A DNA stretch of 64,000 nt from Spirochaetales bacterium (lineage in GTDB: Bacteria; Spirochaetota; Spirochaetia; SZUA-6), in the NCBI GenBank assembly GCA_027021365.1, contig JALUUM010000022.1, forward strand, positions 19,150 through 83,149, in the 5' to 3' direction. Below, piece by piece: positions 8,897 to 44,513 of this stretch (position 1 is the first letter of the stretch; each line of letters begins with the position of its first letter). A model generated the notes under the pieces. The model had not been told where the DNA came from. It ran no database searches and saw only the letters and a list, made by a program, of their open reading frames with translations. The translations under genes were made by a program, and so were the position numbers.

Positions 8897-8947
8897 GTAT
8901 TAAAAACGCACGGTTGAAAAGGCGCAATTGGGGCGGATTGGTGTAAA

Positions 8948-12019: not shown

Positions 12020-12020
12020 C

Positions 12021-15077: not shown

Positions 15078-18000
15078 GTATCCTTTCTCGCTGGTATGGT
15101 AAAAGGACAACCGCGTTAAGTATCATTCTAATGATTCTGATTCTTGCAGCAGCGGGAATCTACACAGCAGGTTTCAGGGAGGCGGGGGCCCGAAGTAGCA
15201 GTATAAAGTATACCGTAATAATACGTCACTACGGAATCGATCCCGAGGAAATGGAGAGGAGTATTACCATTTCGCTGGAAGACAGAATAGCAGGAATATA
15301 CGGAATAAAAGAGATGCGCTCCATCTCGGAACTCAACACGAGCAGGGTCGACCTTACTTTACTGCCCGGAACGGATATAAGGGAGTTTTATATTGAACTG
15401 CGTGATGCCGTTTACTCGGTTTATTCAAGCCTCCCTAAGTCGGTTCAGAAACCGGAAATATTTTCTTCGGCTGGCGATGACAGACCCATCCTCATAGTTT
15501 CGCTGGATTCGGGAGAGAAGGATTTGAACTTCCTTCGGGATATCGCAGAGGAAAAGCTGAAGCCTCAGCTTGAAAAGATAGAGGGAGTGGGAGAGATAGA
15601 AATCGGCGGAGGTGAACCCACGGAGATACATGTGGTTGTAAACAGAGAGAAGGCGCAGAGCATGGGACTGAGCGCTAGAGATATAGGGAGATTTATCAGG
15701 CTCAACTATGTTAAGGGGGGACTCGGCTACGTAGAAAGATTCGGTAAAAGAACAGCTCTTGTCATGGATGGGAGACTTAACTCGTTAGAGGAGTTAGGGA
15801 ACCTGGAAATACCAGGCTCATCGGGAAGGCTTATTAGGCTTAGCAGTATAGCAAAGATCAAGTACGGGACGAGGGAACGTGATACAATCAGCAGGGTAAA
15901 CGGAAGGAAAAAGGTTATCCTATACATAAAGAGTGCAGGCACAGGGAACCCCTTGCAGGTTTCTGCAATGGTCAAGAAGGTGCTTGCCAAAGGAGACATC
16001 TCCTACGAGATAATCTACGATTACGGTGAGAGGCTAAAAAGGGCACTGACAAAGCTCCTTAAGGCAATTGCCTATGCCATGGTCATCGTTTCACTGTTCC
16101 TGCTTATTGCTTTAAGAGACTTCCGGAAGGTTTCAATTCTAAGCTTGAGTATCCCCGTAACGACTGCTGCCACTGTCTCTCTGCTTACCTTTCTAAAGAT
16201 TCCCGTTGGTATCGCGGTCCTTTCGGGTCTTGCAATAGGCATCGGTCTAATTGCAGACACGGGGATTATTATGGTCACTGCGGTTGGGAGAAGGCGGGGT
16301 TTTATGGGTAGCACCGGGAGCTCGGCCCGGAGAGGTCGGAGAGTCAGCGGCAGTGTCGAGCGGACGGGCCAGACATGTCAAGTGGGTCGGCTGCGGCACG
16401 AACCTAACTGGAAGAGGGTGATAGAGCTTATTCCCTCGCTTGCAGCCTCGGCCGCAACAACAGTGATTGCCGTGGTACCGCTCTTCTTTATTCCCGGAAA
16501 CGCAACGGGGGTGAGAGATATAGCACTGGTTTTTATCTTGCTTATAGCTCTTTCTTTTATCCTTAACGTATTTTTTCTGCCGCCGTTAATCGGGTCCCCG
16601 AGCCAGGTGCACGAAAGAAGGTCCTTGAGGGACAAGCGAAAGTCGGGACTCATACCAAGGTGGCTTCTTCTTAGAATCTTCTATTATGTAGAGCATTTCA
16701 TCGTATCAAAACCTCCCTTCGGGATTATCTCTGCCATGGTTCTTATCCTACTCTTGGGCTTAAGCCTTATCCGCGTGCCACACGAAGTGCAGCGAGGTGT
16801 CAGTGAACCTGTGGTTTTCTGTCATATAGAGTTTGACAGCGGAACGAATGTAAAAACTATCGATTCCGAGATGAAAAAGGTTGTTTCCGGCCTTCTTAAA
16901 ATAGGGGGAATAGAAAAGGTAGAAACACTTGCCAGAAGGGATAATGGGAGTTTTTCCGTACGCTATAATCCTGATATTCTATCAAGAAGGCAGGCGATTT
17001 CTGCCGTGGAGGCATACAACAACAGGCTCTACAATGCATTCATCTATATCCCGAAGGCCAAAAACAGGCAGACATCTGTAGAGGTGGGAATTGTCGGGCC
17101 GGATGATAACTATTTAAGAGAGAAGGGCAGAGAGGCTGCAGTGCTTTTTCAGAGAAAGCCATGGGTGGATAAAACTGTTCTGTTCTACAAAAAGGGTCCC
17201 CCTGAGTGGATCTTTAAGGTTGATAATACACGTCTCTCCGGTCTCATGCTTAGTACAGCTCAAATTGTAAGTGCCCTGCGCTGGCAGTTATACGGGCCTG
17301 TAAGTATTAAGTGGATGGAAAATGGGGTTGCCGGGAATGGAGGCGGGAGGGAGATCGATCTACGGGTTATGGGAGCCTCCCGCAGCGGCTCTGCAAATAA
17401 AATAATGAACAGCCGGGTTATCAATCTGCGCAATGAGACTGTTCCTTTGAGAGAGGCAGGGGATTTTTCCCTGGTTACAGGCAGAGCAAGAATCTACAGG
17501 CTTAACAGGCAGCGTGCCGTTTTTTTCGGTATCGATTCAAGGATAAACGATGTTGATAAACTGTATGCGAAAATAAGAGAAGGATTTGATTCGCTTAATT
17601 TAAAGTCCGGTTACTCCTACAGAATAGATCCCTCTCTTATGGAAATACGAAAAGAGTATGTAAGGCTTGAGCTTATGCTGATACTTGCTGTAGCACTTAT
17701 ATTCATGCTGATTGCTTCGCAGTACGAATCAATCTCTGCACCAATTCCCGTAATCTTATCGATACCCCTTTCATTGAGCATACCTTTTATAGTTTTGTGG
17801 CTAACAGGCAGGGTTGTAACGACATCTGTTTTTATCGGGCTCATAGTAGTAACGGGAATTGTTGTGAATAATACTATTATTCTTGTTGACGATATTTTGA
17901 GACGGAGGGAGAGAAATAAAAAGGAAGAGGTACCAAGGGCTATTATCCATGCCTTGAGAAAGCGGATAATCCCCATGCTTTTGACATCAGTCTCTACCCT

Positions 18001-18178
18001 TCTGGGGTTGATACCTCTGTTTTTAAACAGAAGCGCATCTGCAGAGCTTGTTCACAGCCTTGCCTTTGTCGTGTTCTGGGGAGTTTTGGGTTCTGTCATT
18101 ACTTCAGTAGTAATTATGCCTGCGCTTTTGATAGTCTTCCCCGGACTTACCAGAAGGAGTTTTGCCAGTATCGAATAA
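15074..18178 (+). CDS. RND efflux transporter permease subunit (AcrB-like), copy 2
   Basis: 1034-aa ORF. Its ATG overlaps the copy-1 stop (ATGA), suggesting translational coupling. It has typical RND topology and AASAATTVIAVVPLFFIPG motifs, plus an atypical GC-rich, Arg-rich segment near 16290-16440. Confidence 0.9.
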   Translation: MSILSRWYGKRTTALSIILMILILAAAGIYTAGFREAGARSSSIKYTVIIRHYGIDPEEMERSITISLEDRIAGIYGIKEMRSISELNTSRVDLTLLPGTDIREFYIELRDAVYSVYSSLPKSVQKPEIFSSAGDDRPILIVSLDSGEKDLNFLRDIAEEKLKPQLEKIEGVGEIEIGGGEPTEIHVVVNREKAQSMGLSARDIGRFIRLNYVKGGLGYVERFGKRTALVMDGRLNSLEELGNLEIPGSSGRLIRLSSIAKIKYGTRERDTISRVNGRKKVILYIKSAGTGNPLQVSAMVKKVLAKGDISYEIIYDYGERLKRALTKLLKAIAYAMVIVSLFLLIALRDFRKVSILSLSIPVTTAATVSLLTFLKIPVGIAVLSGLAIGIGLIADTGIIMVTAVGRRRGFMGSTGSSARRGRRVSGSVERTGQTCQVGRLRHEPNWKRVIELIPSLAASAATTVIAVVPLFFIPGNATGVRDIALVFILLIALSFILNVFFLPPLIGSPSQVHERRSLRDKRKSGLIPRWLLLRIFYYVEHFIVSKPPFGIISAMVLILLLGLSLIRVPHEVQRGVSEPVVFCHIEFDSGTNVKTIDSEMKKVVSGLLKIGGIEKVETLARRDNGSFSVRYNPDILSRRQAISAVEAYNNRLYNAFIYIPKAKNRQTSVEVGIVGPDDNYLREKGREAAVLFQRKPWVDKTVLFYKKGPPEWIFKVDNTRLSGLMLSTAQIVSALRWQLYGPVSIKWMENGVAGNGGGREIDLRVMGASRSGSANKIMNSRVINLRNETVPLREAGDFSLVTGRARIYRLNRQRAVFFGIDSRINDVDKLYAKIREGFDSLNLKSGYSYRIDPSLMEIRKEYVRLELMLILAVALIFMLIASQYESISAPIPVILSIPLSLSIPFIVLWLTGRVVTTSVFIGLIVVTGIVVNNTIILVDDILRRRERNKKEEVPRAIIHALRKRIIPMLLTSVSTLLGLIPLFLNRSASAELVHSLAFVVFWGVLGSVITSVVIMPALLIVFPGLTRRSFASIE

Positions 18179-18352
18179 CAGGAAAAACGTCATCCAACCT
18201 CCCATTCTTGTTAATTTAATACAAAAATGCACGGTAAAATACCATGATACCTTTACAAAGAATTGACCCGACTGCTTGGATATAAAATTACCAGAGATAT
18301 GTTTAAAAGACACTAGTTGATAATGGCTATACTTAATAGCGATTTTTATAAT

Positions 18353-18748
18353 TTATATTCCTCTTTTCCATGCTTCCACAACTGAAACAATTTTAATTTT
18401 CCTATATTTTCCCATTGAGAGAAGTTCTTTATCACCGGTTATTAAAAGATCACACATTCCTGATAATGCTGTGCCAATGATTGGTAGATCACTCTTATCT
18501 GATAGAGTGATATCTTTTATTACTGAAGGTGTGACTTTTAAAAACCTTTCAAAAATAATAGATTTTGCTTCGCTAACTTCATTTTCCGAGAAATCGAATT
18601 TTTTATTTAAGGTTTCCTCAAATTCATGAATAATGTAATCAGAAGTAATTAAAGTATGATTTTTAATGCAGTGTTCTAGAAGTTCGAAACAACTACCATG
18701 CGAAATAATTGAGGCAATAAGAATATTTGTATCCAGTAAAAGTTTCAC
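18353..18748 (-). CDS. PIN-domain toxin (VapC-like) of a type II toxin-antitoxin pair
   Basis: 131-aa ORF MKLLLDTNILIASI... with acidic PIN residues (D6, ...LITGDKELL). It overlaps the upstream antitoxin gene by 4 nt. Confidence 0.8.
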   Translation of the reverse strand: MKLLLDTNILIASIISHGSCFELLEHCIKNHTLITSDYIIHEFEETLNKKFDFSENEVSEAKSIIFERFLKVTPSVIKDITLSDKSDLPIIGTALSGMCDLLITGDKELLSMGKYRKIKIVSVVEAWKRGI

Positions 18749-18963
18749 GAGACAATATCAAATATGTCTTCATCTGTATAAATCTTTTTGTTTTCTATTC
18801 TTAGTAGCATTTTGTTTCTGAGTTTTTTTAACTTTTTAAAATATATGTAATCCTTTATTGCGTTTCTCATTATTTCACTTTTAGAGCTGTTTTCTTCTTT
18901 GGCAAGTGTGTCTATTTCTTTTTCCAAATCATCTGGAATGCTAATTGTTAAAATCTTTCGCAT
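18745..18963 (-). CDS. Ribbon-helix-helix (CopG/RHH-type) antitoxin
   Basis: 72-aa ORF with an RHH-like N-terminus (ILTISIPDDLEKEIDTLAKEENSSKSEIMRNAIKDYI). It sits immediately upstream of, and overlaps, the PIN gene. Confidence 0.7.
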   Translation of the reverse strand: MRKILTISIPDDLEKEIDTLAKEENSSKSEIMRNAIKDYIYFKKLKKLRNKMLLRIENKKIYTDEDIFDIVS

Positions 18964-19024
18964 AGACTCATCCTCTCTGTATTACATATTAATACATTTT
19001 TTTAGTTGTAGCAAACTTTTCTTT

Positions 19025-19084
19025 ATGTATTTTGAGATGTATTTTGAGATGTATTTTGAGATGTATTTTGAGATGTATTTTGAA
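19025..19084. repeat. Five tandem copies of a 12-bp unit (ATGTATTTTGAG) in the TA promoter region
   Basis: Direct inspection shows atgtattttgag x4 plus atgtattttgaa, 60-120 bp upstream of the antitoxin start on the minus strand. Candidate operator/iteron. The plus-strand 'MYFEMYFE' and 'ILRCILRC' ORFs are artefacts of this repeat. Confidence 0.8.
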
Positions 19085-19125
19085 CCTGAAAATTGATTCA
19101 AAAATATCTATCCGGAAATTCTTCT

Positions 19126-19584
19126 TTAGAAACTTTCACCCTCTTTTGCAACCTGCAAGTGGCACCAGGCATAAAGTGCATCGTAAACATCAAACTGCCT
19201 GTCAAGGTTTTCCAGGTTATCGGGAAATCTTAAACTGTAACCAACAGTAAGTGCTTCCAAGCCCGTGGCAAGGGGGCCAGCATTTCGATCAGCCTTGACA
19301 TCGGCACTGTGAACAATCTTTGCCAGTCTAAGCAGACCAGAGTCTGTAAGGCCAAAGTGTTCAACAATGGTCTCAAAGGAACACTTGCCGTCGTGATGTC
19401 CAAGTTCAACTCCGGGCGCATCAAAGGGAATTGCACCTGTTTCCTCAGAAACTTTAGTTACTTGGCTCTTGGGCACAAAGATAAACTCTGCATCCGAATC
19501 GATAAAACGGCTTATAAGCCATGGGCATGCAACACGGTCAACATGCACATGCGAACGAGTCACCCATTTGATTTTCCTCTTCAC
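19126..19584 (-). CDS. ChrB C-terminal-domain (chromate-resistance-associated, rhodanese-like) protein
   Basis: 152-aa ORF with the characteristic KWVTRSHVHVDRVACPWLISRFIDSDAEFIFVP motif. Confidence 0.55.
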   Translation of the reverse strand: MKRKIKWVTRSHVHVDRVACPWLISRFIDSDAEFIFVPKSQVTKVSEETGAIPFDAPGVELGHHDGKCSFETIVEHFGLTDSGLLRLAKIVHSADVKADRNAGPLATGLEALTVGYSLRFPDNLENLDRQFDVYDALYAWCHLQVAKEGESF

Positions 19585-20339
19585 TTTATAACCTCTTTAA
19601 CCTGTTTTAAATCTTTGCCGAAGAAGGCAAAGTATAGTGTGCCCAAAACACCAAAGCCGAAGGCCGTTAGAAAATTTGTTGTTGGTGATGCGACTGATTT
19701 TATAAAAGGAATCAATCCATGCCCAATTTCCAGTGTATTAAATACCTGTATCGAGGTTGATGCGTTCCACAGAAAAGCACCTCCAAAAGCAGCCACAGAA
19801 ACTATGACATCGCGTATTAGGTAATACATCCCAAAGGTTGTTGCCTTTTTCCCTTCCGGAGCAAGATCCATTATTAAAGCTTTCCGTGTTGGTTCGCCGA
19901 ACTCCTTCATCCCACGAATGATAAAAGCTATTACCATAAGCCAGAAGGTACGTGAAAAAAGTAGTATCAACGGGAAGAGGGTAAAGAAACCAAAAGTAAT
20001 GACAACAAAAGTTTTTTTGGTATTTCTGTCCGCAAGATATGCAACGGGAATATAAATTATCATTGCAGTAACCATCTCGATTGTTGTCAATACACCAAAT
20101 TGTAGAGGGGTTATGCCATTAACTCTCATGCACCAGAGGACGACAAAGGCGTAGGGAATCTGTTCGCAGAAACGCACAAGAATATCCGATACAAGGAGAG
20201 TGCGAAGCGCGGGACGTATCAATTTTAATCTTTTTTCATTTTCTTTTGCATGGTTTTTTCTTCTGCTATATGTGAAATTAAACCTGGTATTCGAGACATA
20301 ATAAAGCGTTTCCATAATCAAAATCGATTCGAAGATCAA
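19581..20339 (-). CDS. MFS-type transporter, C-terminal 6-TM half only (possibly truncated)
   Basis: 252 aa. It begins with a cytoplasmic-loop-like segment and then six predicted TM helices resembling MFS TM7-12. No N-terminal half is found in the ~330-bp region upstream. It overlaps the ChrB-like gene by 4 nt. Confidence 0.5.
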   Translation of the reverse strand: MIFESILIMETLYYVSNTRFNFTYSRRKNHAKENEKRLKLIRPALRTLLVSDILVRFCEQIPYAFVVLWCMRVNGITPLQFGVLTTIEMVTAMIIYIPVAYLADRNTKKTFVVITFGFFTLFPLILLFSRTFWLMVIAFIIRGMKEFGEPTRKALIMDLAPEGKKATTFGMYYLIRDVIVSVAAFGGAFLWNASTSIQVFNTLEIGHGLIPFIKSVASPTTNFLTAFGFGVLGTLYFAFFGKDLKQVKEVIK

Positions 20340-20672
20340 GAAGGAGTGCGGCTAATGCACCATCGACGTTTATTGGAAGTTCTTTATTTATTTGCGTTAG
20401 ATAGAGAATTTATTATAGCCATTAAAATGGTTACATACTTGCCGCTTATTTTTAATTCATTTGCAATAGAAAGCAGTTTATATGTTCTTGGATCACTTGA
20501 ATGTTATCTATGACCAAAACCGGGAATTTTTTTCCCCTTACTCCTGTATTGTTCTATTAGTTTAATGGCAGTCATTTCTGCCTTGCTATTATCTATCTGA
20601 ACAGATTCACTCTAATTATGGTTTCCTTAAAAGGGAAAATGCTGAATAAGAAGTTATCAAAATAAGAAGTTA

Positions 20673-21266
20673 TCAAATTAAGCACCAACTTTTTATTATT
20701 TTCCAGGTCAAAGAGTATATCCAGTTATCTGTGTTCCATTCTGTGCTATTGAACTGATACAATTTGAAGTTATGAACAGTATATCCTTCACTATCAAATT
20801 GTACCTCCTTGAAAAAATCCATCATATCGATCATAAGATCATCGGTAACATCAGTCATTGATATGGTGATATGTGGAATGAATCTTTCACCAACAAGTTC
20901 AGACTTTGTAAATTCGCAATCCGGTGATATAAATGGTTCTATTGCTCTAAAAGATTTCTCCTGTATTTCCCACAATATTTTATTTTTTTCTTTGGAAAAG
21001 GTAATCCCCAAGCCTTCACCTTCGAAAATTGTCAGATTTGAGGGATAAATCTTGAAGGGTCGATAGTCTTTAATTATTTTGTCCAGGGCATCTATTAGAC
21101 TTTCTATTCTCATGGTTTTACTTGGTTTAAAAAAACCTTTTATTGTCATGTGAATCATGAAGTTCAATGCCGCCTTAATCCTGTACTGATCATATACCAG
21201 ATCTCTCATACACATAATTTTACAACTTAAAGGGTATGGTGGAATAAGATAAAATCCTAACCTCAT
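20673..21266 (-). CDS. 2H phosphoesterase superfamily protein (LigT/2'-5' RNA ligase-like)
   Basis: Two H-x-T-x motifs (MIHMTIKGFF and FIPHITISM) are spaced as in LigT-like cyclic phosphodiesterases. The true start may be an internal Met. Confidence 0.5.
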   Translation of the reverse strand: MRLGFYLIPPYPLSCKIMCMRDLVYDQYRIKAALNFMIHMTIKGFFKPSKTMRIESLIDALDKIIKDYRPFKIYPSNLTIFEGEGLGITFSKEKNKILWEIQEKSFRAIEPFISPDCEFTKSELVGERFIPHITISMTDVTDDLMIDMMDFFKEVQFDSEGYTVHNFKLYQFNSTEWNTDNWIYSLTWKIIKSWCLI

Positions 21267-21268
21267 CT

Positions 21269-22414
21269 TTAAGACCTCCTTAGAGAAACATCACATTTAC
21301 AGGAGTCTCTTTTAATAAATTCAAGATTTATGATCGTTCTGTTGAAGGACGGGAAAGAGTCGTTAAGATTGATATATTGAATGGCATAGTATAATCTTTC
21401 AAAAGAAATTCTGCCGGTTTCCTCCATTTTCTGATCTACGGTTGTGATACTGAACAATTCTGCAATATCGGAATTATCATATCCTGTTACGGCTATTTTT
21501 CTCCCCATCTTTTTTAGTTCATAGATGACGGATGCTGCTACAATGTCTGACATGCATATTATGACATCAACATTGGGAATCGTTTTTAATATTGATTTCA
21601 AGATACGTTTCCCTTCTCGAAATGTATGTGAATCAATAATAAATATATTTTCATCACTATTGACTTTTATGTTGAATGAATCAATTGATTTTTTAAAGAG
21701 AGATACCTTCTTGCTTCTAATCGAGTGATTTTCAGGAGTTAACGAGACAAATGCAGGATTTCGGTATCTATGAAAGCTAAAAAGGTGTACCAATAAATTA
21801 TAAAGAATATTGGTATCGGGATCCACGATTTCTACAACCGGAGGAATTGTAATCTTCTCCCAGGGATGTACCAATACCACTGGTAATTTCTTTTTAAGCA
21901 ATGTCTCAGAATAATCTTTTCGAAATCTACCAGAGACAATAATAAGACCGTCAACCATTCCAAGGAAAGGCATATCGGAAAAGAATCTGCTCTCTTCCTT
22001 TTCAGATATATCATATATATCCACATAGAATCCATACTTTTGAGCTTCTTTTTTGACACCTCGGAGTATTTGTGTATAGAAAATCGGGTTTGGGCTGTTG
22101 GTAAGCGGAGAGATAAAAGCAACGCTTTTCTTTTGAATGCTTCTAAGTTTTTTTGCTGCGTTAGAAGGTGCATAATTTACTATTGCAAACAGTTTTTCAA
22201 GCTTATCCTGCTTGGTTTTGGAAAGGGTGCCTCCCTTATTGTTTATAAAATTGGAGAGTGATGCAACGGATAATCCGCTTAAAGAAGCTAAAAGCTTTAA
22301 ATCTACATCCGGGGCGTTGCTTCGTTTCTGATGTAGCCATGTTCTGTATTTTTTTTCCAATAATTGCGGAGAAGTATCAAATATTTCGGCAATTCTTTCA
22401 AAATCAAGTGTCAT
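21269..22414 (-). CDS. LacI-family transcriptional regulator (HTH + periplasmic-binding-protein-like sugar-binding domain)
   Basis: LacI-type HTH (LASLSGLSVASLSNFINNKGG...KLEKLFAIVNYAPSNAAKKLRS) after a ~40-aa N-terminal extension, followed by a type-I PBP fold. It lies adjacent to a sugar ABC operon. Confidence 0.6.
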   Translation of the reverse strand: MTLDFERIAEIFDTSPQLLEKKYRTWLHQKRSNAPDVDLKLLASLSGLSVASLSNFINNKGGTLSKTKQDKLEKLFAIVNYAPSNAAKKLRSIQKKSVAFISPLTNSPNPIFYTQILRGVKKEAQKYGFYVDIYDISEKEESRFFSDMPFLGMVDGLIIVSGRFRKDYSETLLKKKLPVVLVHPWEKITIPPVVEIVDPDTNILYNLLVHLFSFHRYRNPAFVSLTPENHSIRSKKVSLFKKSIDSFNIKVNSDENIFIIDSHTFREGKRILKSILKTIPNVDVIICMSDIVAASVIYELKKMGRKIAVTGYDNSDIAELFSITTVDQKMEETGRISFERLYYAIQYINLNDSFPSFNRTIINLEFIKRDSCKCDVSLRRS

Positions 22415-22459
22415 TATAATGCCTTTATTGTTAATTCTTTGCCCAATATTCTGAATGTA

Positions 22460-23311
22460 TCATCCCTTTATACCCGAATGCATAAAACTCTGAATAAATC
22501 TTCTCTGGAAGATAACAAATATTGTCAGGAGAGGAAAGACAACTATAATGGTTGCAGCCATAGTGAGAGTCCATTCAGGTGTGCTCTCAGTAGCTTGTGT
22601 TAGCATTGCCAGGCCAACTGTAAGAGTCCTTGCACGTACCGTGTCTGTAACAATGAGGGGCCAAAAAAACTCATTCCAATGATAAGTTACACTAACCAAG
22701 GCAAATGCTATGAAAGAAGGTTTGGCCAGTGGTATAAATACATGGAATACTGTTTTCAAGCCTTCACACCCGTCAATTTTTGCGGCATCTTCTATGTCAC
22801 GTGGTATTGCCCTGAAAGCCTGTCGTAACAGGAATGTTCCGAATGCCGAAGCAAAATATACTACTCCAATTGCCAGCTTTGTATCCAGGAGTTTCAATGA
22901 AGCAATTGTTATATAATTGGGCACGACAATGCTTTGAGGTGGAATCATTAGTTGTAATAAGAAAAATAAAAAAATGATGTCTCGGCCGGGAAATTTTAAT
23001 CGAGCGAAAGCATAGCTGGCCAGAGAAATAGTTACTAACTGCACAGCCAGAATACTGATAACCAGTATTATTGTATTCATATAGTAGCGTCCAAATGGAG
23101 CAACTTCCATTGCATCTCTGAAATTTGTGAATATTATTTTCTTTGGGATCCAATGAAAATCTGTACTTAGAAGTTCAGGTAGACTTTTAAATGCTGTACT
23201 AACCATTAAAAAAAGTGGAATTAGTACTAGAATTGAAATAACAAATAACAGAATATGGCTGAGTATATTGTGTTTTACCAATCTTTTTAGTACGGAATAC
23301 TTAAACTTCAT
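22460..23311 (-). CDS. Carbohydrate ABC transporter permease (MalG/UgpE-like)
   Basis: 6-TM permease with the EAA-like loop (AAKIDGCEGLKTVFHVFIPLAKP). The likely start is the internal ATG at 23311 (MKFKYSVLKRL); the track start at 23359 is in frame. Confidence 0.85.
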   Translation of the reverse strand: MKFKYSVLKRLVKHNILSHILLFVISILVLIPLFLMVSTAFKSLPELLSTDFHWIPKKIIFTNFRDAMEVAPFGRYYMNTIILVISILAVQLVTISLASYAFARLKFPGRDIIFLFFLLQLMIPPQSIVVPNYITIASLKLLDTKLAIGVVYFASAFGTFLLRQAFRAIPRDIEDAAKIDGCEGLKTVFHVFIPLAKPSFIAFALVSVTYHWNEFFWPLIVTDTVRARTLTVGLAMLTQATESTPEWTLTMAATIIVVFPLLTIFVIFQRRFIQSFMHSGIKG

Positions 23312-24170
23312 AGTATACCCTTCTTCCAATTGACCTGAATATGAAAGAAACGAGTACAAGCAAAAAAATGATCAAAATTGTAGTTAATGTAGCACCAATA
23401 CCCCTGTTCCAGAATCTGAAAGCTTGTTCATAGATATAATACACTATCAAGTTGGTTGAATTAGCAGGACCTCCCTGAGTCATTATGTAAACCTGATCAA
23501 TTGCCTGTAATGAATTAATTATATTAATGATAAAAATAAAAAAAGTGTAAGATGATATCATTGGAAATATCACATAAGAAAAACGCTGTCTACCGTTAGC
23601 TCCCTCTACGATTGCTGCATCTATAAGGGATTTTGGAATATTTTGTAATCCGGCAAGAAATAGAATCATGTAGTAGCCAATATATTTCCAAATTCCGACC
23701 GCAATAATGCTCCATAGGGCAATTTTTGCATTATTCAACCAATTTATATTTGGAAAGCCTAATTTACCAAGGAAAAAGTCAAGCAAACCATAATCAGGAA
23801 TATACATCCACTTCCATATTAGAGCGGCAGCAGCCATAGGTATAACAGTGGGGTAAAACAGGGCTACCTTGTAAAAACTGCTCATGAACAGGACTTTATT
23901 AACCTGAATTGCCAGGAATAGGGCAAGAGACATACTTATAACAATTGTACTTAGAGAATATATCACTGAATTTTTCAGCACTTTCCAAAAATCAGGATTC
24001 TTGAATAAATCGATGTAGTTAGAAAATCCGGTAAAAACTTTACTGGGGTAACTTGTGTTCCATTTGAAAAAACTCAGGTAAATTGCCCTGAATACCGGGT
24101 AATATGTGAAAATAATAAGAAAAAATAAAGCAGGTAACAGATACAAATAAGGCTTTAATTTTTTTAACAT
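23301..24170 (-). CDS. Carbohydrate ABC transporter permease (MalF/UgpA-like)
   Basis: 6-TM permease with a conserved loop (DAAIVEGANGRQRFSYVIFP). Confidence 0.85.
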   Translation of the reverse strand: MLKKLKPYLYLLPALFFLIIFTYYPVFRAIYLSFFKWNTSYPSKVFTGFSNYIDLFKNPDFWKVLKNSVIYSLSTIVISMSLALFLAIQVNKVLFMSSFYKVALFYPTVIPMAAAALIWKWMYIPDYGLLDFFLGKLGFPNINWLNNAKIALWSIIAVGIWKYIGYYMILFLAGLQNIPKSLIDAAIVEGANGRQRFSYVIFPMISSYTFFIFIINIINSLQAIDQVYIMTQGGPANSTNLIVYYIYEQAFRFWNRGIGATLTTILIIFLLVLVSFIFRSIGRRVYYEV

Positions 24171-38029: not shown

Positions 38030-38566
38030 TTGATACGGGATATCTGGCAAAAATTGATAAACAATGCGATTCTCTGGGCGCCAAAGCTTCTCGGATCAAT
38101 ATTGATATTTGCCGCCTTTTACCTCACTTCAAAAGTAGTAAAGAAGATCATAAGAAGGGCGGGAGAGCGTTTCAACTTTGCAGACAGCATTACCTCCCTG
38201 ATAATCAGAACTAGTAACGTTACACTGATAATCTTCGGTCTCATTACAGCACTTGGAACTATTGGCGTAAATGTATCTGCTCTTGCCGCAGGTATAGGCT
38301 TGACAGGATTTGCCCTTGGTTTTGCCCTTAAAGATACAATAGCCAACCTTCTCTCCGGTGTGCTGATACTTTTGTATCGTCCCTTCGAAACGGGGGACCA
38401 CATAAAGATAGCTGGATACGAGGGAAGGGTAATCTCGATTGATCTACGATATACAAAGCTCGATTCGGAAGAACGGAAAATACTCATTCCCAATTCCAAA
38501 TTGTTTACCGATCCGATCACGGTGGTTAGAAGTAATGCAAACGGGGCAGATGAGGTGGAGGATTAA
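38030..38566 (+). CDS. Small-conductance mechanosensitive channel (MscS family)
   Basis: Three TM helices plus MscS beta-domain motifs (LLYRPFETGDHIKIAGYEGRVISIDLRYTKLDSEERKILIPNSKLF). Confidence 0.75.
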   Translation: MIRDIWQKLINNAILWAPKLLGSILIFAAFYLTSKVVKKIIRRAGERFNFADSITSLIIRTSNVTLIIFGLITALGTIGVNVSALAAGIGLTGFALGFALKDTIANLLSGVLILLYRPFETGDHIKIAGYEGRVISIDLRYTKLDSEERKILIPNSKLFTDPITVVRSNANGADEVED

Positions 38567-39746
38567 TTAAAACGAACCTTCCGATTCTGCTTTCAATGGC
38601 CTTGTACCATTCGGAGATCTGCAGAACATTTATCACGTTTCCGAGAGGAGCCCACACAACGAGCCTGTTTTCGATGAAGGCTATTCTTTCCAAGAAAAGA
38701 TTTGCCTCGGTGTTTCCTTCCAGGGGAATCGAGCCAGCCTCCTTTCCGTTCTCAATATCCAAGAACGATATTTTGTTTCTGTTCAGCACGGTAAGGAACC
38801 TGCTATCGGGAGTAAATGAAACTGCTCGAAAATCTTGTTCTGCCCCGAAGGTACTGTAAAGGATAACCCCATTTTCAGTGTCATACAGGCAGAGAAAACC
38901 CTTCAACATCGATGGCTTTGAAGGCTCGTTTACCCTTAAGGCCAGGGCAACCATGTGTTTGCCAGGAGCATACGTTATATCGCGAATATGGTAGGTACCC
39001 TCAGGCAGAGGGAGCTCCCCTGTGGTTTTCATGTCGGGTAGAGAAAACATTTCAAGCTTTTTTATATATTTTGCTTCTCCTGTTTCATCGGGAGAAAAGC
39101 CTAAGCACCACTTTCCATCGGGGTCAATGAGGAGAGGAGAAAAACCTGTTCCGCCTCTCAGATTCCCTTTTGAAAGGTCATAACTCCATTTACCTGATAT
39201 GATAAGATTCCTCTTCATATCAAGAAGTATCGGGTCTCCCGGGTTGCACCCCGTGTCTAATAGATTGATCTCCTTCAATAGCAGACCCTTTTCTATATCC
39301 AGTATTACAAGTGAAACATCCTTGAAACCCTCCCATTCCGCTTCTCTGTACTTTACTACAGCCAGTTTCCCTGATGGAAGAAAGATCATCTTCCCGATTC
39401 CGCCTTCTATGCCAATTGAAGTGATCTTGATGAAAGAGGGAAGTTTGAATATCATGATGCTACCACTGTCGCTGTTTCCGATTGCAAGTTTGCCGGTAGC
39501 CATGTCGAATGTCTCGATTTCAGCATTAAAAGGCAATCTTTCTTTAAAATATCCGGTTTTATCGGAAACACTAATTTCAATGTTTGCAGGTTCACCATCG
39601 ACTGGTTTTTCGTAAGAATATCCTGGACCGGTGTGCTCTTCTCCTGTAACCAAGGGGGAATATTCTGCCAGGATTGAAAGGACAGCGAAACTCAAAATTG
39701 ATACTATCCCGGCTCTCATGGAAGGTTTTTCCCCTGTTTGAATCAT
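38526..39746 (-). CDS. Beta-propeller (WD40/PQQ-like) secreted protein, hypothetical
   Basis: 406-aa ORF with repeated beta-strand blades. The signal peptide probably begins at the internal Met (MRAGIVSILSFAVLSILA). The 3' end overlaps the MscS gene 3' end convergently by 41 nt. Confidence 0.5.
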   Translation of the reverse strand: MIQTGEKPSMRAGIVSILSFAVLSILAEYSPLVTGEEHTGPGYSYEKPVDGEPANIEISVSDKTGYFKERLPFNAEIETFDMATGKLAIGNSDSGSIMIFKLPSFIKITSIGIEGGIGKMIFLPSGKLAVVKYREAEWEGFKDVSLVILDIEKGLLLKEINLLDTGCNPGDPILLDMKRNLIISGKWSYDLSKGNLRGGTGFSPLLIDPDGKWCLGFSPDETGEAKYIKKLEMFSLPDMKTTGELPLPEGTYHIRDITYAPGKHMVALALRVNEPSKPSMLKGFLCLYDTENGVILYSTFGAEQDFRAVSFTPDSRFLTVLNRNKISFLDIENGKEAGSIPLEGNTEANLFLERIAFIENRLVVWAPLGNVINVLQISEWYKAIESRIGRFVLINPPPHLPRLHYF

Positions 39747-39798: not shown

Positions 39799-40197
39799 TC
39801 AGTTCTTTTTCTTTTTTAATTCCGGATACTTCCTCATACTATCTACGTAATGCATTATTGCGAGGTAGGGATGGGTTAGCATGATTCTCGGACCGGAATA
39901 CCTCATTACCTCTCTTACCCTCTCTCTCATTTCTCTGCTGTAACAGTGTATCCTGCATTTGTTACAAACCGGTTTGTTTTTTCCGTAGGGGCAATTCTCG
40001 GTTCTCTTTATGGCATAATCGAGAAGTTTCCTGTAATTTTCGCAGTGCGCTTCACTGCCTTCGGTTTTGAACTGTTTGCAGTATATCTCTATAAGGACTG
40101 CGAGGGTCTTTTTTTCTCTCCTGATCCTCGGTGATTCTTTTATCTTTGTGCTGTCTATTCTCGCAGGCTTTTTGAAGTTTCTGTTCTCCTGTTCCAT
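39799..40197 (-). CDS. 'Nitrous-oxide-stimulated promoter' family (YgbA-like) Cys-rich small protein
   Basis: Conserved spaced cysteines and family-typical segments (HCENYRKLLDYAIKRTENCPYGKNKPVCNKCRIHCY...MRYSGPRIMLTHPYLAIMHY). Start chosen at ATG 40197 (MEQENR), which has an AGAGGA RBS; the track start at 40236 is in frame. Confidence 0.55.
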   Translation of the reverse strand: MEQENRNFKKPARIDSTKIKESPRIRREKKTLAVLIEIYCKQFKTEGSEAHCENYRKLLDYAIKRTENCPYGKNKPVCNKCRIHCYSREMRERVREVMRYSGPRIMLTHPYLAIMHYVDSMRKYPELKKKKN

Positions 40198-40312
40198 GTG
40201 GTATTCCTCTGTATTATTTAGAAATATAATAGTCAATTATTAATTGAATGTCGATAGGAAACTTTTATTATTTGGTAATAAATTAGAGTGTTTGACCCGG
40301 ATGAAAAGTGTA

Positions 40313-41560
40313 TCAGGCTCCCTTTTTAAGCCTGCTTCCCATCATGTTCAACTTGTACATTCTTATAGTATCGGGCATGAGCACTTTGCCCAGAGGTGAT
40401 GCGAAGTAAAGGGCATCCTCGGGACACTGCACGATGCAGGCGCTGCACTGGACGCATCTCTCTGATCCCGTGATTACCGCTTTTCTCCCCTCGATTGAAA
40501 AACAGTTTCTAGGACAGACATCAACACAGATTCCGCAACCGGTGCACCTTTCCCGATCCAGCATCACCTTGAGTAGCCTTTCCTCGTGAAGGCCACTCTT
40601 GTATACAGGTGTGCTTCCCATGAGGTCTATATTTACGAGAAGCATCATTGAAAGGGAGACAAAGCCCCAGCGGAGAAGAAGTGACAGTGACAATGTTCCC
40701 GCGGCAAGTGAATACGGTAAAACACCGAGCATGAAGACTAGCCAGAGAATCAACGATACCCAGCCAATGTTGAACAGGACCGTGTACTTGCTTATTCCCA
40801 GTTTCCCCGAAAGAGGTCTGCCAACATGAGGTTCCTTGGAAGGGCCCGGATAAGACCCGTAAGATCCGTAGTTTCCGTAAAATCCGTGATTCTTTCCTTT
40901 TTTCCCGGTCAAAAGCCCGGAATAGAGGGGAAAGGTAATAAAGACGAAGAGTGGTACTATCCAGGAAGCAGCCACGGTAAGAATCAGCATTTGCCTCCAG
41001 AAGATGTAGGTCAGCAAGGCAAGGATAAGGGAAAAGGGAAACGCCCACATGACTGCCATTTCGAGCCTGTGGAGCAGGGGAAACTTTACCATTCGCATGT
41101 TGGCATCCTTCCTGTGACCGTCCTCGAGAATTTGCGTAAACCGTGGTATGTCCTTTGCATGGACCGGTCCCCAGATAACATGCCAACCGGTTTTTTTTCT
41201 TACAACACCTGCCTCTATTCCAGCCGCAGCAAGCTGCGGGAATATCACCCTTCGGTGATCCACCAGTTGTTCGATTCCACTCGTTTTCAAAACGGAAACT
41301 GCCGAGTGGTTGGACAGGTGGCCTCCCGTAGATGCGCACCACACGTTGATTCCATTGCTGTTTGCCACCAAGAGATAGCAATCCATCCCCTCGAGAGCTT
41401 TTTTCACCCTCTCGACGCTGACTGCATAGTTGCAGGTTAGAAAAACCGGTGATGACCTGTCCGGGTTCCCGATCTTTCTCAGGCCCGTCTTTGCAGGCAG
41501 AGGAAATCCTCTAAGAAGGGTACCCACGATATTTATGAAGAAATATTTCAACGAAGGCAT
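40313..41560 (-). CDS. Fused HgcA-like corrinoid-binding domain + multi-TM domain + C-terminal 2x[4Fe-4S] ferredoxin (HgcB-like): a fused HgcAB-type paralog
   Basis: N-terminal CFeSP/HgcA cap-helix region GINVWCASTGGH (compare canonical NVWCA[AGS]GK), VIFPQLAAAGIEA and VIWGPVHAKDIPRF. A central run of about 5 TM helices contains a Gly/Tyr-rich loop. The C-terminus has CTGCGICVDVCP and CVQCSACIVQCP ferredoxin motifs. The 286-aa ORF at 40521-41381 is an out-of-frame shadow. Confidence 0.7.
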   Translation of the reverse strand: MPSLKYFFINIVGTLLRGFPLPAKTGLRKIGNPDRSSPVFLTCNYAVSVERVKKALEGMDCYLLVANSNGINVWCASTGGHLSNHSAVSVLKTSGIEQLVDHRRVIFPQLAAAGIEAGVVRKKTGWHVIWGPVHAKDIPRFTQILEDGHRKDANMRMVKFPLLHRLEMAVMWAFPFSLILALLTYIFWRQMLILTVAASWIVPLFVFITFPLYSGLLTGKKGKNHGFYGNYGSYGSYPGPSKEPHVGRPLSGKLGISKYTVLFNIGWVSLILWLVFMLGVLPYSLAAGTLSLSLLLRWGFVSLSMMLLVNIDLMGSTPVYKSGLHEERLLKVMLDRERCTGCGICVDVCPRNCFSIEGRKAVITGSERCVQCSACIVQCPEDALYFASPLGKVLMPDTIRMYKLNMMGSRLKKGA

Positions 41561-41589
41561 TGTTCACCTCCCTCATCCGTCAACTTCTT

Positions 41590-42258
41590 TCAATGACTCC
41601 CGGGATTCCGCGCAATGATCTCTGTAAAACTTTCCATACCATTCATGTTGATACTTTCCACGGCGAACCCCGCTTCTTCAATCTGTAGGGCCGGTTCTCT
41701 TAAACTTTTCGTTGTCGTACCCGTAATGAGGTATGTAACGATGACCAGCGGAAGCCTTATAAGGGCATAAACGAATCGCTTTACCAAATTCTTCGGAACT
41801 GTTTCATCGGCTATTAGCAACAGGCCGCCCGGCTTTATTATCCTCCTTAGCTCTCGAAGTGTAAAGCGAATCTCATCCTGGCTCAATTCGGAAAAGCACA
41901 GGGTACTCGTTGCAGCATCGTAACTGCCTTCACTCACTGAGGAAAGTTCTGCAACACCCATCTCTGAAAACTCGACATTTTCTTTCAGTTCTTCCGGCAT
42001 ATCGGACTGCTTAAGGCGTTTTTTTGCAATTTCAAGCATCGCCGGGTTGATGTCTATTCCTCTTACCAGGGCTCCTCTCTCTGCCATCCGAATGGAAAGA
42101 AGCCCTGTGCCGCAGCCAATGTCTAATACCTTCATACCGCATTTGATATGAGAGGCAATTCTGTCGTATGCCGGTTTTATACGTCCCAATGTTACAACGG
42201 ATATTCCCATATCATACCGCTCTGGGGAAGACTCGAGTATTCTCATAAGTACATACAT
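41590..42258 (-). CDS. Class I SAM-dependent methyltransferase
   Basis: Motif I VLDIGCGTGLLSIRMAERG, acidic post-I residue (GIDIN), and motif II/III IKPGGLLLIADE. It lies 30 bp upstream of, and is co-oriented with, the HgcAB-like gene. Confidence 0.8.
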   Translation of the reverse strand: MYVLMRILESSPERYDMGISVVTLGRIKPAYDRIASHIKCGMKVLDIGCGTGLLSIRMAERGALVRGIDINPAMLEIAKKRLKQSDMPEELKENVEFSEMGVAELSSVSEGSYDAATSTLCFSELSQDEIRFTLRELRRIIKPGGLLLIADETVPKNLVKRFVYALIRLPLVIVTYLITGTTTKSLREPALQIEEAGFAVESINMNGMESFTEIIARNPGSH

Positions 42259-42383
42259 TGTGATTCTCCTGATTTATTATAGCACCTGTTGTTTGATTAT
42301 AAAAAACTATTTTTTTAAATTATTTTATTTATTCCAATTTTATGATATACTTATTTAGTAATAATTATTCTTAAGGAATTAGT

Positions 42384-44513
42384 ATGAAAGATAGTATAAA
42401 AATCATTTTCTTTATTTACCTCCTTCTGATGCTTCTAATACTTCCGTTGACTCTGTTTTCTCAGGCCTCGGATAGGAACTATTCAACTCTTACATTTTCG
42501 ATGAGTCCCAGATACGAACTTCCGCTGTTTACGGACTCGACACGCTTTGGAAACGGATTGTCAGGTGACTTTACAATTTCATACAAGCCGCCAATAGCTT
42601 TTCCCATTCATGTAAGCTTGAATTTGGGCTATACATACCTGCCTCTGAAACTTTCCTGGGCTAACCCCATACACAATATACTGGCCGGAGTCGGTGTTGG
42701 TGTGGATTTCAGGTTCCTCGGGAGAATAGCAGCAGACCTGTACGTGAGAGGTGGCTATTACGAGGGAATCCTTGAGAATCTGAAGGGTGAAATAATCTAC
42801 GGGGGAAACCCATACATCGATGCCGGGGGAGGTCTGTCCTTCTATCTGTCGCCCCGTCTTCGCATGGGAATGGGCTCTTCCTACAGGCAGCTCTTCGGGA
42901 AACCCGACGATTTTCTAAGAAGTGTGGGTTTCTATGTGGGTACCTCCTACAGAATTCCGCTAAGCGGTTCCATCGATATTGCCCCCGCAGAAACGAAACC
43001 AGCAAGGCTCAGGATATTGAAAGTTAATTTTGATGATATTTTTCCTGTCTTTTACAAGTACTACGATGACCACCCAATCGGAAAAATTACGGTGGAAAAC
43101 GGAGAGGAGAGTAAAATAGATGATATAAAGGTCTCTTTTTATATAAAGCAGTACATGGATAATCCCAAGACATACAGAGTGGAAGGTCCCATAGAAAGAG
43201 GAGAAAAGCGGGATATAGACCTCTTTGCCCTTTTCAACGAGAGGGTGCTTACCATTACGGAAGGTGCCAAGGTTTCATCGGAACTCGTAATAGATTACCG
43301 CATCAAGGGACTGGAAAAGAGAAAAACAATGATAAGTACAGTATCGATACAGAACAGGAATGCCTCCATCTGGGATGATGACAGGAGAGCTGCGGCATTC
43401 GTTACGGCACGGGATCCCCTTGTTCTGAAGCTGGGTAAGAACCTTGCCGGAGTCATTAGAAACCAGCCGGTCGGAGTTCTCGGAAAGAATCTTATGCTCA
43501 CATTGGCCATACACAATGCACTATCAATGTATGGAATGACATATATCGTAGATCCGAATACCCCGTACAGGGAATTTCATGAAAAGAAACAGGCAATAGA
43601 TTTTCTCCAGTTTCCCAGGCAGACCCTGGAATACAAGGCAGGAGATTGCGACGACCTTTCCATACTGTATGCCGCTTTGCTCGAGGCGTTGAGTATCAAT
43701 ACGGCCTTTATTACTGCACCGGGACACATTTACATAGCCGTCGATCTTGGTATGACTCCTTCCCAGGCAAATGCTATTTTTTACAATACCGATGACCTTA
43801 TTATTCGAAACGGTAAGGTCTGGTTTCCCTTCGAGGTTACCATGGTTCAGGAGGATTTCATAAAGGCATGGCAGGAGGGTGCAAGAGAATGGCGAAAGTA
43901 CACACCCCTCGGTAAGACTGGCTTCTACCCCGTTTCCGAGGCCTGGAAGGTTTTCGAGCCGGTTGGGCTTCCGGGCGAAACTCCCGGTATCGAGTTCCCG
44001 CCCATGGAGAAGGTGAAGGTTGCTTTTACGGCAGACATCAAGAGGGTCATAGAGAAAGAGATTGTGAACAAGGTTAAGGACCTGGAAAGCAGAATTGCAA
44101 AGAGCGGAAACAATCCCAGGTTGATAAACAAACTGGGAATACTATACGCACGCTACGGGCTGTATGATAAGGCAGAGAAACAGTTCCTTAAGATAATGGA
44201 GAAGTCTGGATACAGAGGGATAGCTCTGGTAAATGTTGGTAACATCAGGTACAAGAAGGGCGATTACAAGGGAGCTTTAAGGTATTACGAAAAGGCACGT
44301 GTAGCCCTGGCCGATGATCCGAAGGTACTCTTAAATATTGCAAGGGCCAGGTACCAGCTTGGTAACTATGAACAATCGCGCAAGCTGTATGATCGTGTGA
44401 AATTAATATCACCGGCCCTTGTAAAGGGTTACGAATACCTGGGAACGGGAAGCAAATCTTCCTCACGTGCAGCAAGTGCGGAGGAGAGAGGGAGTGTACT
44501 ATGGCAGGAATAG
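42384..44513 (+). CDS. Transglutaminase-like cysteine-protease-fold domain protein with C-terminal TPR repeats (secreted)
   Basis: Signal/TM N-terminus and a beta-rich N-terminal domain. The transglutaminase-like core is LEYKAGDCDDLSILYAALLEALSINTAFITAPGHIYIAVD (Cys...His). TPRs lie near the C-terminus (LGILYARYGLYDKAEKQF...). It is a paralog of 60782-63688. Confidence 0.7.
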   Translation: MKDSIKIIFFIYLLLMLLILPLTLFSQASDRNYSTLTFSMSPRYELPLFTDSTRFGNGLSGDFTISYKPPIAFPIHVSLNLGYTYLPLKLSWANPIHNILAGVGVGVDFRFLGRIAADLYVRGGYYEGILENLKGEIIYGGNPYIDAGGGLSFYLSPRLRMGMGSSYRQLFGKPDDFLRSVGFYVGTSYRIPLSGSIDIAPAETKPARLRILKVNFDDIFPVFYKYYDDHPIGKITVENGEESKIDDIKVSFYIKQYMDNPKTYRVEGPIERGEKRDIDLFALFNERVLTITEGAKVSSELVIDYRIKGLEKRKTMISTVSIQNRNASIWDDDRRAAAFVTARDPLVLKLGKNLAGVIRNQPVGVLGKNLMLTLAIHNALSMYGMTYIVDPNTPYREFHEKKQAIDFLQFPRQTLEYKAGDCDDLSILYAALLEALSINTAFITAPGHIYIAVDLGMTPSQANAIFYNTDDLIIRNGKVWFPFEVTMVQEDFIKAWQEGAREWRKYTPLGKTGFYPVSEAWKVFEPVGLPGETPGIEFPPMEKVKVAFTADIKRVIEKEIVNKVKDLESRIAKSGNNPRLINKLGILYARYGLYDKAEKQFLKIMEKSGYRGIALVNVGNIRYKKGDYKGALRYYEKARVALADDPKVLLNIARARYQLGNYEQSRKLYDRVKLISPALVKGYEYLGTGSKSSSRAASAEERGSVLWQE

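Follow-up and report, generated by a model that had tools for sequence, protein, structure and literature searches.

What HgcA-type corrinoid proteins are natively for is a long-standing question, because the mercury methylation that they carry out looks like a side reaction. The question is raised again by a locus in a 64,000-nucleotide stretch of a Spirochaetales bacterium genome (contig JALUUM010000022.1, positions 19,150 to 83,149; hereafter the window), where a single gene encodes a 415-aa protein with parts of both HgcA and its ferredoxin partner HgcB, and the gene before it, cpaM, encodes a class I S-adenosylmethionine (SAM)-dependent methyltransferase. Proteins fused in this way form the sister group of true HgcA. 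We show here that CpaM is the obligate partner of the fusion protein. The two-gene cassette, cpaM then hgcAB-like, has already been catalogued; the locus is an ordinary example of it, and its methylation target is probably not mercury. The window gene itself adds little; it is the comparative results that make the function of the family easier to test. An earlier reading of the window (the original prediction) had taken the locus for an uncharacterised module of three genes, but the fused family was published in 2015, and both proteins of the cassette have curated NCBI models and names.

Identity and anatomy of the fusion protein

The 415-aa protein scores 432.6 bits on the NCBIfam model NF043039, 'HgcAB-like fusion protein' (cut-off 285), and belongs to that family, whereas its 157.2 bits on the true HgcA model NF040863 fall well short of the cut-off of 275. 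Pfam recognises the C-terminal part of CdhD at residues 20-141 (E 4e-17) and the Fer4 and 4Fe-4S dicluster domains at residues 331-387 (E 8e-12). The single polypeptide holds the three parts by which NF043039 is defined, namely a corrinoid domain of the type found in the corrinoid iron-sulphur protein (CFeSP), a membrane domain and a C-terminal two-cluster ferredoxin. The earlier reading had recognised the same three parts in the 415-aa protein and had proposed profile searches as their test, and these recovered a corrinoid domain of the CFeSP/HgcA type. Family members that share this architecture, the cap-helix consensus and an upstream cpaM include those of Pyrococcus furiosus (Q8U2U9), Kosmotoga pacifica and Methanococcoides methylutens.

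As controls for true HgcA, DNA with the canonical NVWCAAGKG cap motif was taken from metagenomes by DNA pattern. Four such cap-motif HgcA proteins gave the reciprocal result, 401-501 bits on NF040863 and only 190-206 on NF043039, and the genes downstream of all four pass the HgcB model. All 20 representative matches to the window protein that were tested do far better with the fusion model than with that of HgcA, 15 of them scoring above the fusion cut-off, and no true HgcA was found among the tested members of the top 150 matches in the representative search. In a joint alignment the fused group and true HgcA are reciprocally monophyletic (neighbour-joining tree of the corrinoid domain only, midpoint root), with a mean identity over this domain of 70% among fused proteins, 60% among true HgcA proteins and 38% when the two groups are compared. 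Because of its low score on the HgcA model and its separate clade, the fusion protein is on this evidence a paralogue of true HgcA and not an orthologue, in line with the earlier suggestion of a paralogous activity. Lin et al. likewise find that the sister of single-subunit HgcA is the fused clade (bioRxiv 2022.11.21.517362).

The family is widespread. At 90% identity, the homologues found by a protein search form more than 1,850 clusters, with a typical length of 380-390 aa, and an exhaustive search of 50%-identity representatives returned 164 clusters at E <= 1e-30. Counting one genome per species, relatives are encoded in 346 genomes from more than 20 phyla. The carriers include Spirochaetota, Thermococcaceae, Thermotogae, Chloroflexota, Desulfobacterota, Acidobacteriota and Bacteroidota, as well as Ignavibacteria, Calditrichota, Zixibacteria, KSB1, Bathyarchaeia, Asgard archaea and others, and the closest relatives of the window genes come from metagenome-assembled genomes (MAGs) of Spirochaetales/Spirochaetaceae, at 69-76% identity. 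Fused paralogues had been called rare, a description that holds only in a relative sense. The homologues share the single-polypeptide architecture throughout the family and relatives occur in this many species genomes, which rules out an assembly artefact or a frameshift as the origin of the fusion.

An AlphaFold2 model built on an alignment of 150 sequences has a mean pLDDT of 90.1 and a pTM of 0.87, and was used in place of one built on 18 sequences, which was unusable at a mean pLDDT of 51. The top Foldseek match of the model is the deposited HgcAB model 9a0b_A. By the same method the corrinoid domain superposes on the CFeSP structures 4c1n, 2ycl, 2h9a and 4djd with a root-mean-square deviation of 1.5-1.8 Å over ~127 residues, and the C-terminal domain on HgcB (9a0b_B) with 1.4 Å over 56 residues.

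The motifs quoted in the original prediction are all present, among them GINVWCASTGGH at residues 70-81, CTGCGICVDVCP at residues 339-350 and CVQCSACIVQCP at residues 369-380. The first of these is the cap helix, in which Cys75 is the predicted thiolate ligand of the cobalt. Trp74 and Cys75 are invariant in the 150 family members, and N72 and G79 are each found in 149 of them. The family consensus reads GINVWC[AGS][AS][TA]GGH, and the window sequence has the family-specific x-x-[TA]-G-G-H continuation. When the fused cap helix is aligned with that of 30 true HgcA proteins (GINVWCAAGKGT), both groups are gap-free and the difference comes down to two substitutions, the Gly before the Lys becoming Thr or Ala and the Lys becoming Gly. 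The window's NVWCASTG departs in this way from N[VI]WC[AS][AGS]GK, the high-stringency HgcA criterion of Hg-MATE (PMC10087281), with T and G where G and K are expected. The motif had been described as keeping the Cys, losing the Lys and gaining one residue; the first two points stand, whilst the ungapped alignment contradicts the third. Nor is the deviation a peculiarity of the window gene, for the entire family has it as its consensus.

The membrane domain has four transmembrane helices, at residues 162-187, 189-217, 260-287 and 292-311 (AlphaFold2; hydropathy agrees), rather than the five or so supposed earlier. The loop between helices 2 and 3 holds seven Lys or Arg residues against one Asp or Glu, a bias that points to a cytoplasmic location for the loop and for both soluble domains; the predicted four-helix topology would indeed place the corrinoid and ferredoxin domains on the cytoplasmic side. 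Helix 4 is followed by a nearly invariant motif, DLMGSTPVYKSGLHE, in which D312, L313, G315, T317, P318 and S322 are invariant or nearly so, and which aligns with NFTGASTYTSxSGVKKE of true HgcA. Beyond this motif true HgcA has one more helix, the fifth, which is hydrophobic, spans ~25 residues and ends the protein; in the fused protein the ferredoxin follows directly instead. Because of this direct succession, the fused architecture is HgcA minus helix 5, joined to HgcB minus its Cys-rich tail.

The HgcB model aligns with the ferredoxin domain over model positions 9-68 of 93 only, with a score of 56.4 bits (cut-off 99). Seven of the cluster cysteines never vary among the 150 sequences. Cys342, the second Cys of the first iron-sulphur (Fe-S) motif, is found in only 54 members and Cys353, within CPRNC, in 134, and at least one of the two in 147; most members have Cys353 only, whereas the window protein has both. 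This alternation suggests an alternative fourth cluster ligand, or possibly a site-differentiated cluster, in the family's usually non-canonical first Fe-S motif. In true HgcB, two canonical Fe-S motifs are found in 46 of 46 sequences, the GxGC cysteine in 44 and the C-terminal Cys pair in 35. A Cys after residue 380 occurs in just 16 of the 150 fused proteins, and the window protein has none after residue 379. Counterparts of HgcB C73, C94 and C95, which work cited in PMC11588087 reports to be important for Hg methylation, are absent from the fused family.

The window protein also carries a lineage-specific insertion, KNHGFYGNYGSYGSYPGPSKEPHVGRPLSG at residues 223-252, that is unique among the 150 aligned homologues and is disordered in the model (pLDDT < 50). 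It partly arose from a 9-nt tandem repeat, 4.1 copies of which lie within its coding sequence at 40851-40887. Because every invariant family residue is retained, the window fusion gene looks functional. Elsewhere in the family, a subfamily of 470-500 aa (P0299, P0315, P0326 and P0345) has an extra N-terminal ~150 aa resembling added transmembrane helices, and its cap helix is the variant N[IV]WCSSL[AS][GN]H.

Might the protein nevertheless be a functional mercury methylase, that is, an HgcAB orthologue that happens to be fused? It has in common with true HgcA and HgcB (NF040863/NF040864; Pseudodesulfovibrio mercurii ND132) a CFeSP-type corrinoid domain bearing the cap Cys, the greater part of the membrane domain, the loop that follows helix 4 and a ferredoxin partner of the 2x[4Fe-4S] type, and SAM is likely to be the ultimate methyl source in both. 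It differs in being one polypeptide rather than two, in having a ferredoxin domain in the place of the fifth helix, in the T/A-G for G-K of the cap, and in lacking the GxGC Cys and the C-terminal Cys pair. Where true HgcA is marked by a separate adjacent hgcB with a Cys73-equivalent and a C-terminal Cys pair, the ferredoxin here is fused. Podar et al., who described the fused family in 2015, detected no methylmercury above controls in the carrier P. furiosus (PMC4646819), and a second carrier, M. methylutens, made none (PMC5893877). The same authors noted that negative results with whole cells leave catalytic competence possible, and that Hg uptake may explain them (PMC4646819). The Hg-MATE protocol flags fused sequences, and its curators leave them out of the true hgc counts (PMC10087281). 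With the failure on the curated HgcA model and the separate clade added to these differences, we regard mercury methylation as a most improbable function of the protein, and our results back the exclusion of fused genes from environmental counts of Hg methylators.

CpaM as the partner of the fusion protein

The 222-aa product of the upstream gene passes NF043040, 'corrinoid protein-associated methyltransferase CpaM' (270.4 bits; cut-off 180; model type 'hypoth_equivalog'), with residues 1-217 aligned, and matches Pfam Methyltransf_25 at E 5e-21. SAM motif I (D.GCGTG) is intact and is kept across 68 orthologues, in which the LCFSEL and ADE motifs are conserved as well. Cys121, within LCFSEL and present in 96% of these orthologues, is the sole conserved Cys outside the SAM motif. 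The closest named relatives, UbiE/MenG, UbiG, BchM and ArsM, reach 45-63 bits against cut-offs of 100-500. CpaM was rejected as a UbiE orthologue on scores far under the cut-offs, and as ArsM on 46.6 bits with NF008823 (cut-off 263) and one aligned Cys only; that Cys is Cys121, which aligns with the Cys of SNCVINL, presumably one of ArsM's As(III) ligands, in an arsenite methyltransferase from a metagenomic hgcA locus (L082). A conserved hydrophobic segment at residues 168-185, R.PL..ITY..TQT.T (RLPLVIVTYLITGTTTK in the window), lies in the presumed substrate-lid region, and could be a membrane-docking or partner-docking element.

The original prediction had proposed the SAM methyltransferase as a functional partner, and comparison of gene neighbourhoods agrees with it. 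The set comprised 80 related loci from more than 20 phyla, with cpaM orthologues 44-64% identical. A cpaM lies immediately upstream of the fusion gene, on the same strand, in 78 of the 80, which is to say in every one of the 78 that can be assessed; in the other two the fusion gene lies within ~130 nt of a contig end. The median gap from cpaM stop to fusion start is -4 nt over 75 loci, and more than half of these show a 4-nt overlap of the ATGA type, which implies translational coupling. The window has 29 nt instead, close to the 30 bp first reported. In one archaeal MAG (L007) the gap is 431 nt because a HEARO RNA (Rfam RF02033) has been inserted between the genes; two such RNAs occur at that locus, at 5524-5746 and 9825-10048.

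Whilst the cpaM-fusion pair is conserved, a third gene is not. De novo clustering of the 2,161 open reading frames (ORFs) of the 80 loci recovered nothing conserved beyond the pair itself and its shadow ORFs. The Pfam families of 129 flanking genes are heterogeneous; the commonest, PEMT, occurs five times, and there is no metal-resistance family among the 25 commonest. A membrane methyltransferase of the PEMT/ICMT type adjoins the cassette at L010 4966-5535, L041/L044 4675-5244, L052 537-857 and L069 4655-5131. In two Actinomycetota MAG loci, tRNA genes lie ~100 nt upstream of cpaM (L008 5162-5253 and L015 5153-5228) and could be integration sites for the cassette.

Among 120 metagenomic loci with the true-HgcA cap motif there was no CpaM orthologue, the best match, at 56 bits, being an ArsM. 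Across 68 pairs, the distances between CpaM proteins track those between the fusion proteins (r = 0.79; permutation test, p <= 0.001), and the two genes therefore travel together. At one of the true-HgcA loci (L082) the gene directly upstream of hgcA, at 8090-8989, encodes an arsenite methyltransferase (NF008823, 315.6 bits), an adjacency that fits the published link between ars and hgcAB.

In some lineages the two proteins are a single chain. The representative search also turned up longer proteins (537-644 aa) whose similarity to the window protein begins only after the first ~240-320 residues. In the seven that were tested (P0284, P0292, P0302, P0308, P0312, P0327 and P0383, each from a different 50%-identity cluster) a CpaM domain is N-terminal (177-276 bits) and is followed by the HgcAB-like part (241-362 bits), with a complete ferredoxin domain in five of the seven. 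Clustered at 90% identity, these seven, and three more proteins of about the same length to which the models were not applied, belong to groups of up to five members. Because the members recur in several independent assemblies, both archaeal (Ranarchaeia) and bacterial (Anaerolineae), these triple fusions are not artefacts. Such natural single-chain proteins are strong genomic evidence that CpaM and the corrinoid protein would function as a single physical unit, in which CpaM and the corrinoid domain lie on the same membrane side.

A literature search found no paper that names this protein CpaM or studies its biochemistry, and none that joins fused hgcA with a SAM-dependent methyltransferase; as far as we have seen, the association is recorded only in the NCBI family name. 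What is new here is the set of linkage counts for cpaM, its absence from the 120 true-HgcA-motif loci, and the natural single chains of CpaM, corrinoid and ferredoxin domains.

A possible route for the methyl group

Zheng et al. (2024) found that purified true HgcAB uses SAM and not methyl-tetrahydrofolate (PMC11588087). There the HgcB clusters reduce the cobalt, and SAM methylates Co(I) to a Cys-thiolate-ligated methylcobalamin, which methylates Hg (PMC11588087). The cassette may follow a parallel course in three steps. The ferredoxin domain would take low-potential electrons and reduce the corrinoid to Co(I); CpaM would bind SAM and hand its methyl to Co(I), giving a Cys75-thiolate-ligated methyl-Co(III); and the methyl would then be handed on, in the form of a carbanion or radical equivalent, to an acceptor located at the membrane face or close to it. 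Hg(II) is an improbable acceptor; another soft electrophile, or a metal(loid), may take its place. By analogy, we infer that the chemistry would resemble the SAM-dependent two-step cycle of true HgcAB, with the SAM step moved to a separate class I methyltransferase. We lean towards this account, although not strongly. It is the most economical one. The corrinoid domain, Cys ligand, clusters and membrane-proximal loop are all retained, and they are joined by an obligate, in some cases covalently fused, SAM-binding partner.

Two known systems resemble the proposal in part. CFeSP (the AcsC/CdhE large subunit of the Wood-Ljungdahl pathway) with MeTr shares the corrinoid-domain fold, the loading of the corrinoid by a separate methyltransferase and the aid of an Fe-S cluster in reducing the cobalt. 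Unlike the window protein it is soluble and heterodimeric, with no Cys ligand to the cobalt and a single N-terminal [4Fe-4S] cluster, and it is methylated from methyl-tetrahydrofolate by a TIM-barrel enzyme, whereas the donor proposed here is SAM and the enzyme has a Rossmann fold. In the reactivation of MetH, the cobalamin-dependent methionine synthase, an electron donor and SAM turn inactive cobalt into methyl-Co(III), and the modules for SAM and B12 are tethered to each other, an arrangement also seen in the CpaM-HgcAB-like triple fusions. The activation domain of MetH has a fold unlike that of class I methyltransferases, and its reaction is one of repair rather than catalytic loading.

Several points weigh against this account. 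The part given to CpaM is deduced from linkage and fusion only, and a mirror-tree correlation is to be expected for any two co-inherited genes. We know of no class I Rossmann-fold methyltransferase that methylates corrinoid cobalt, and the final substrate, rather than the cobalt, could be what CpaM methylates. No separate methyltransferase is needed for purified true HgcAB to use SAM (PMC11588087), so a dedicated SAM:corrinoid methyltransferase is not chemically required. Lastly, the negative Hg tests were made with whole cells, and the fused protein may still be competent (PMC4646819).

CpaM and the corrinoid/Fe-S protein might also act in sequence on one substrate, the corrinoid never carrying a SAM-derived methyl. 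The Co(I) protein could then be, for example, a membrane reductase, a reductive dehalogenase or a user of some other methyl donor, and CpaM would methylate the substrate or product directly. The sufficiency of SAM for true HgcAB would fit such a scheme, as would the fact that the nearest named relatives of CpaM are small-molecule methyltransferases and the alignment of Cys121 with the presumed arsenite ligand of ArsM. In addition, a 2026 preprint describes reductive dechlorination of CCl4 by heterologously expressed true HgcAB (10.64898/2026.04.26.720869), so that HgcA-type corrinoid proteins may do Co(I) chemistry beyond methyl transfer. However, the likeness of CpaM to the named methyltransferases is generic at the scores given above, and with Cys121 alone conserved outside the SAM motif there is no second conserved Cys for an ArsM-like metalloid site. 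The invariant cap-helix Cys is, moreover, a feature tied to methyl-Co(III) chemistry in HgcA. The order of CpaM and corrinoid domain in the tethered proteins recalls the modular B12 methyltransferases, although sequential enzymes also fuse and the resemblance is only suggestive. On these grounds we find sequential action doubtful, and continue with the loading of cobalt by CpaM.

One lead to the acceptor's setting comes from P. furiosus. After a 20 µM copper shock, PF0728 ('SAM-dependent methyltransferase') was up by a log2 value of 5.0 and PF0729 ('Ferredoxin') by 3.4; the two lie directly downstream of the CopZ-type copper chaperone PF0727, itself induced by log2 6.7, and the copper regulator CopR binds the pf0726/pf0727 junction (PMC7830388). 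PF0729 is apparently AAL80853, the accession that stands for fused HgcAB in McDaniel et al., judging from the sequential numbering of the accessions, and the methyltransferase upstream of it fits. Induction of the pair with the copper response in one archaeon is a lead and not a conclusion, and it may reflect read-through, because metal genes are not enriched beside the cassette elsewhere.

A bolder proposal would make CpaM a class I Rossmann-fold SAM:corrinoid-protein methyltransferase and the pair a membrane machine that passes methyl groups from SAM to cobalt to a soft metal(loid) or electrophile met under metal stress. We offer it tentatively, as something rather unlikely in this full form. 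If true, fused HgcAB would serve as a methylase in detoxification or metal handling, a sister function to Hg methylation, and this would bear on what HgcA-type enzymes evolved to do. For experiments, the unit to express and assay is CpaM together with the fusion protein, with SAM as the obvious methyl source, and the natural triple fusions are ready single-chain constructs. The copper induction in P. furiosus points both to conditions and to a tractable host for knock-outs.

Layout and surroundings of the locus

The original prediction had described three co-oriented genes here, and three ORFs do lie on the minus strand, at 41590-42258 (222 aa), 40313-41560 (415 aa) and 39799-40236 (145 aa). 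Their features are collected in Table 1. The site upstream of cpaM is a candidate operon promoter by pattern match only, and the number of promoter-like sites in the region is not above that in shuffled sequence. No cobalamin, SAM or metal riboswitch was found upstream of cpaM in the window (E <= 1), nor any in 12 related loci (gathering threshold).

Table 1. Positions of the cassette, its protein domains and adjacent elements, numbered from the first nucleotide of the window
Feature	Coordinates	Strand	Basis
Promoter-like site (candidate): TTTATA, 16-nt spacer, TG-extended TATAAT, upstream of cpaM	42276..42303	-	Consensus scan, 10/12 hexamer matches
cpaM, class I SAM-dependent methyltransferase, 222 aa	41590..42258	-	NCBIfam NF043040, Pfam Methyltransf_25
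Spacer between cpaM and fusion gene, 29 nt, with ribosome-binding site GAGGGAGG	41561..41589	-	Sequence reading
hgcAB-like fusion gene, 415 aa	40313..41560	-	NCBIfam NF043039 match and AlphaFold2 model
Corrinoid-binding domain (predicted cytoplasmic), residues 1-160, CFeSP large-subunit type	41081..41560	-	Pfam CdhD, Foldseek
Cap helix GINVWCASTGGH, residues 70-81; Cys75 codon at 41336-41338	41318..41353	-	Translation, ungapped alignment with HgcA
Membrane domain, four transmembrane helices	40628..41077	-	AlphaFold2 secondary structure, protein and family hydropathy
Insertion KNHGFYGNYGSYGSYPGPSKEPHVGRPLSG, 30 aa, G/Y/S-rich, in the helix 2-3 loop	40805..40894	-	Alignment, translation
Motif after helix 4, DLMGSTPVYKSGLHEERLL, residues 312-330; NFTGASTYTSxSGVKKEM in true HgcA	40571..40627	-	Mixed alignment of fused proteins and true HgcA
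HgcB-like 2x[4Fe-4S] ferredoxin domain, residues 331-390, then Cys-free tail	40391..40570	-	Pfam Fer4 families, Foldseek
YgbA-family Cys-rich protein, 132 aa from ATG at 40197 (neighbour, outside the conserved module)	39799..40197	-	Pfam PF11756

The third ORF encodes a member of the YgbA_NO family (PF11756, E 3e-38); like the profile matches of the other two proteins, this one is far stronger than chance would give. Its start is most likely the ATG at 40197, which gives the 132-aa form also found in public collections. The earlier reading had made this Cys-rich protein a third component of methyl transfer within one operon. Its co-orientation with cpaM and the fusion gene, and the lack of a terminator-like site between the fusion gene and ygbA, would allow this. 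However, none of the 80 related loci has a YgbA homologue within 6 kb of the cassette, including that of the closest relative (69% identity), and neither the clustering nor the Pfam scan of the flanks described above gave a conserved third gene. In the window itself ygbA is preceded by an AT-rich spacer of ~115 nt, with a promoter-like site at 40254-40226 and a ribosome-binding site of its own. Because the linkage is not conserved, the evidence argues that YgbA is a chance neighbour, and its participation in the system seems to us extremely improbable.

Other genes of the window were noted in passing. Divergent from cpaM is a gene for a 709-aa tetratricopeptide repeat protein (42384-44513, plus strand), residues 232-504 of which resemble the N-terminal region of anti-phage ProA (NF058533, 42.5 bits, far below the cut-off). 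On the other side of the cassette, a 406-aa uncharacterised ORF (38526-39746, minus strand), with a faint beta-propeller match and no NCBIfam match, converges with a short MscS-like ORF of 178 aa (38030-38566, plus strand) in which the C-terminal region of MscS is apparently missing, and the two ORFs share 41 nt. Further away, 10463-18178 holds a tandem pair of AcrB-type RND transporter genes (1031 and 1034 aa), and an outer-membrane factor and a membrane-fusion component are also among the window ORFs, probably just upstream of them. The region 18000-24000, which has several minus-strand ORFs and a low G+C content (0.34-0.37 against ~0.45 elsewhere), could be an island.

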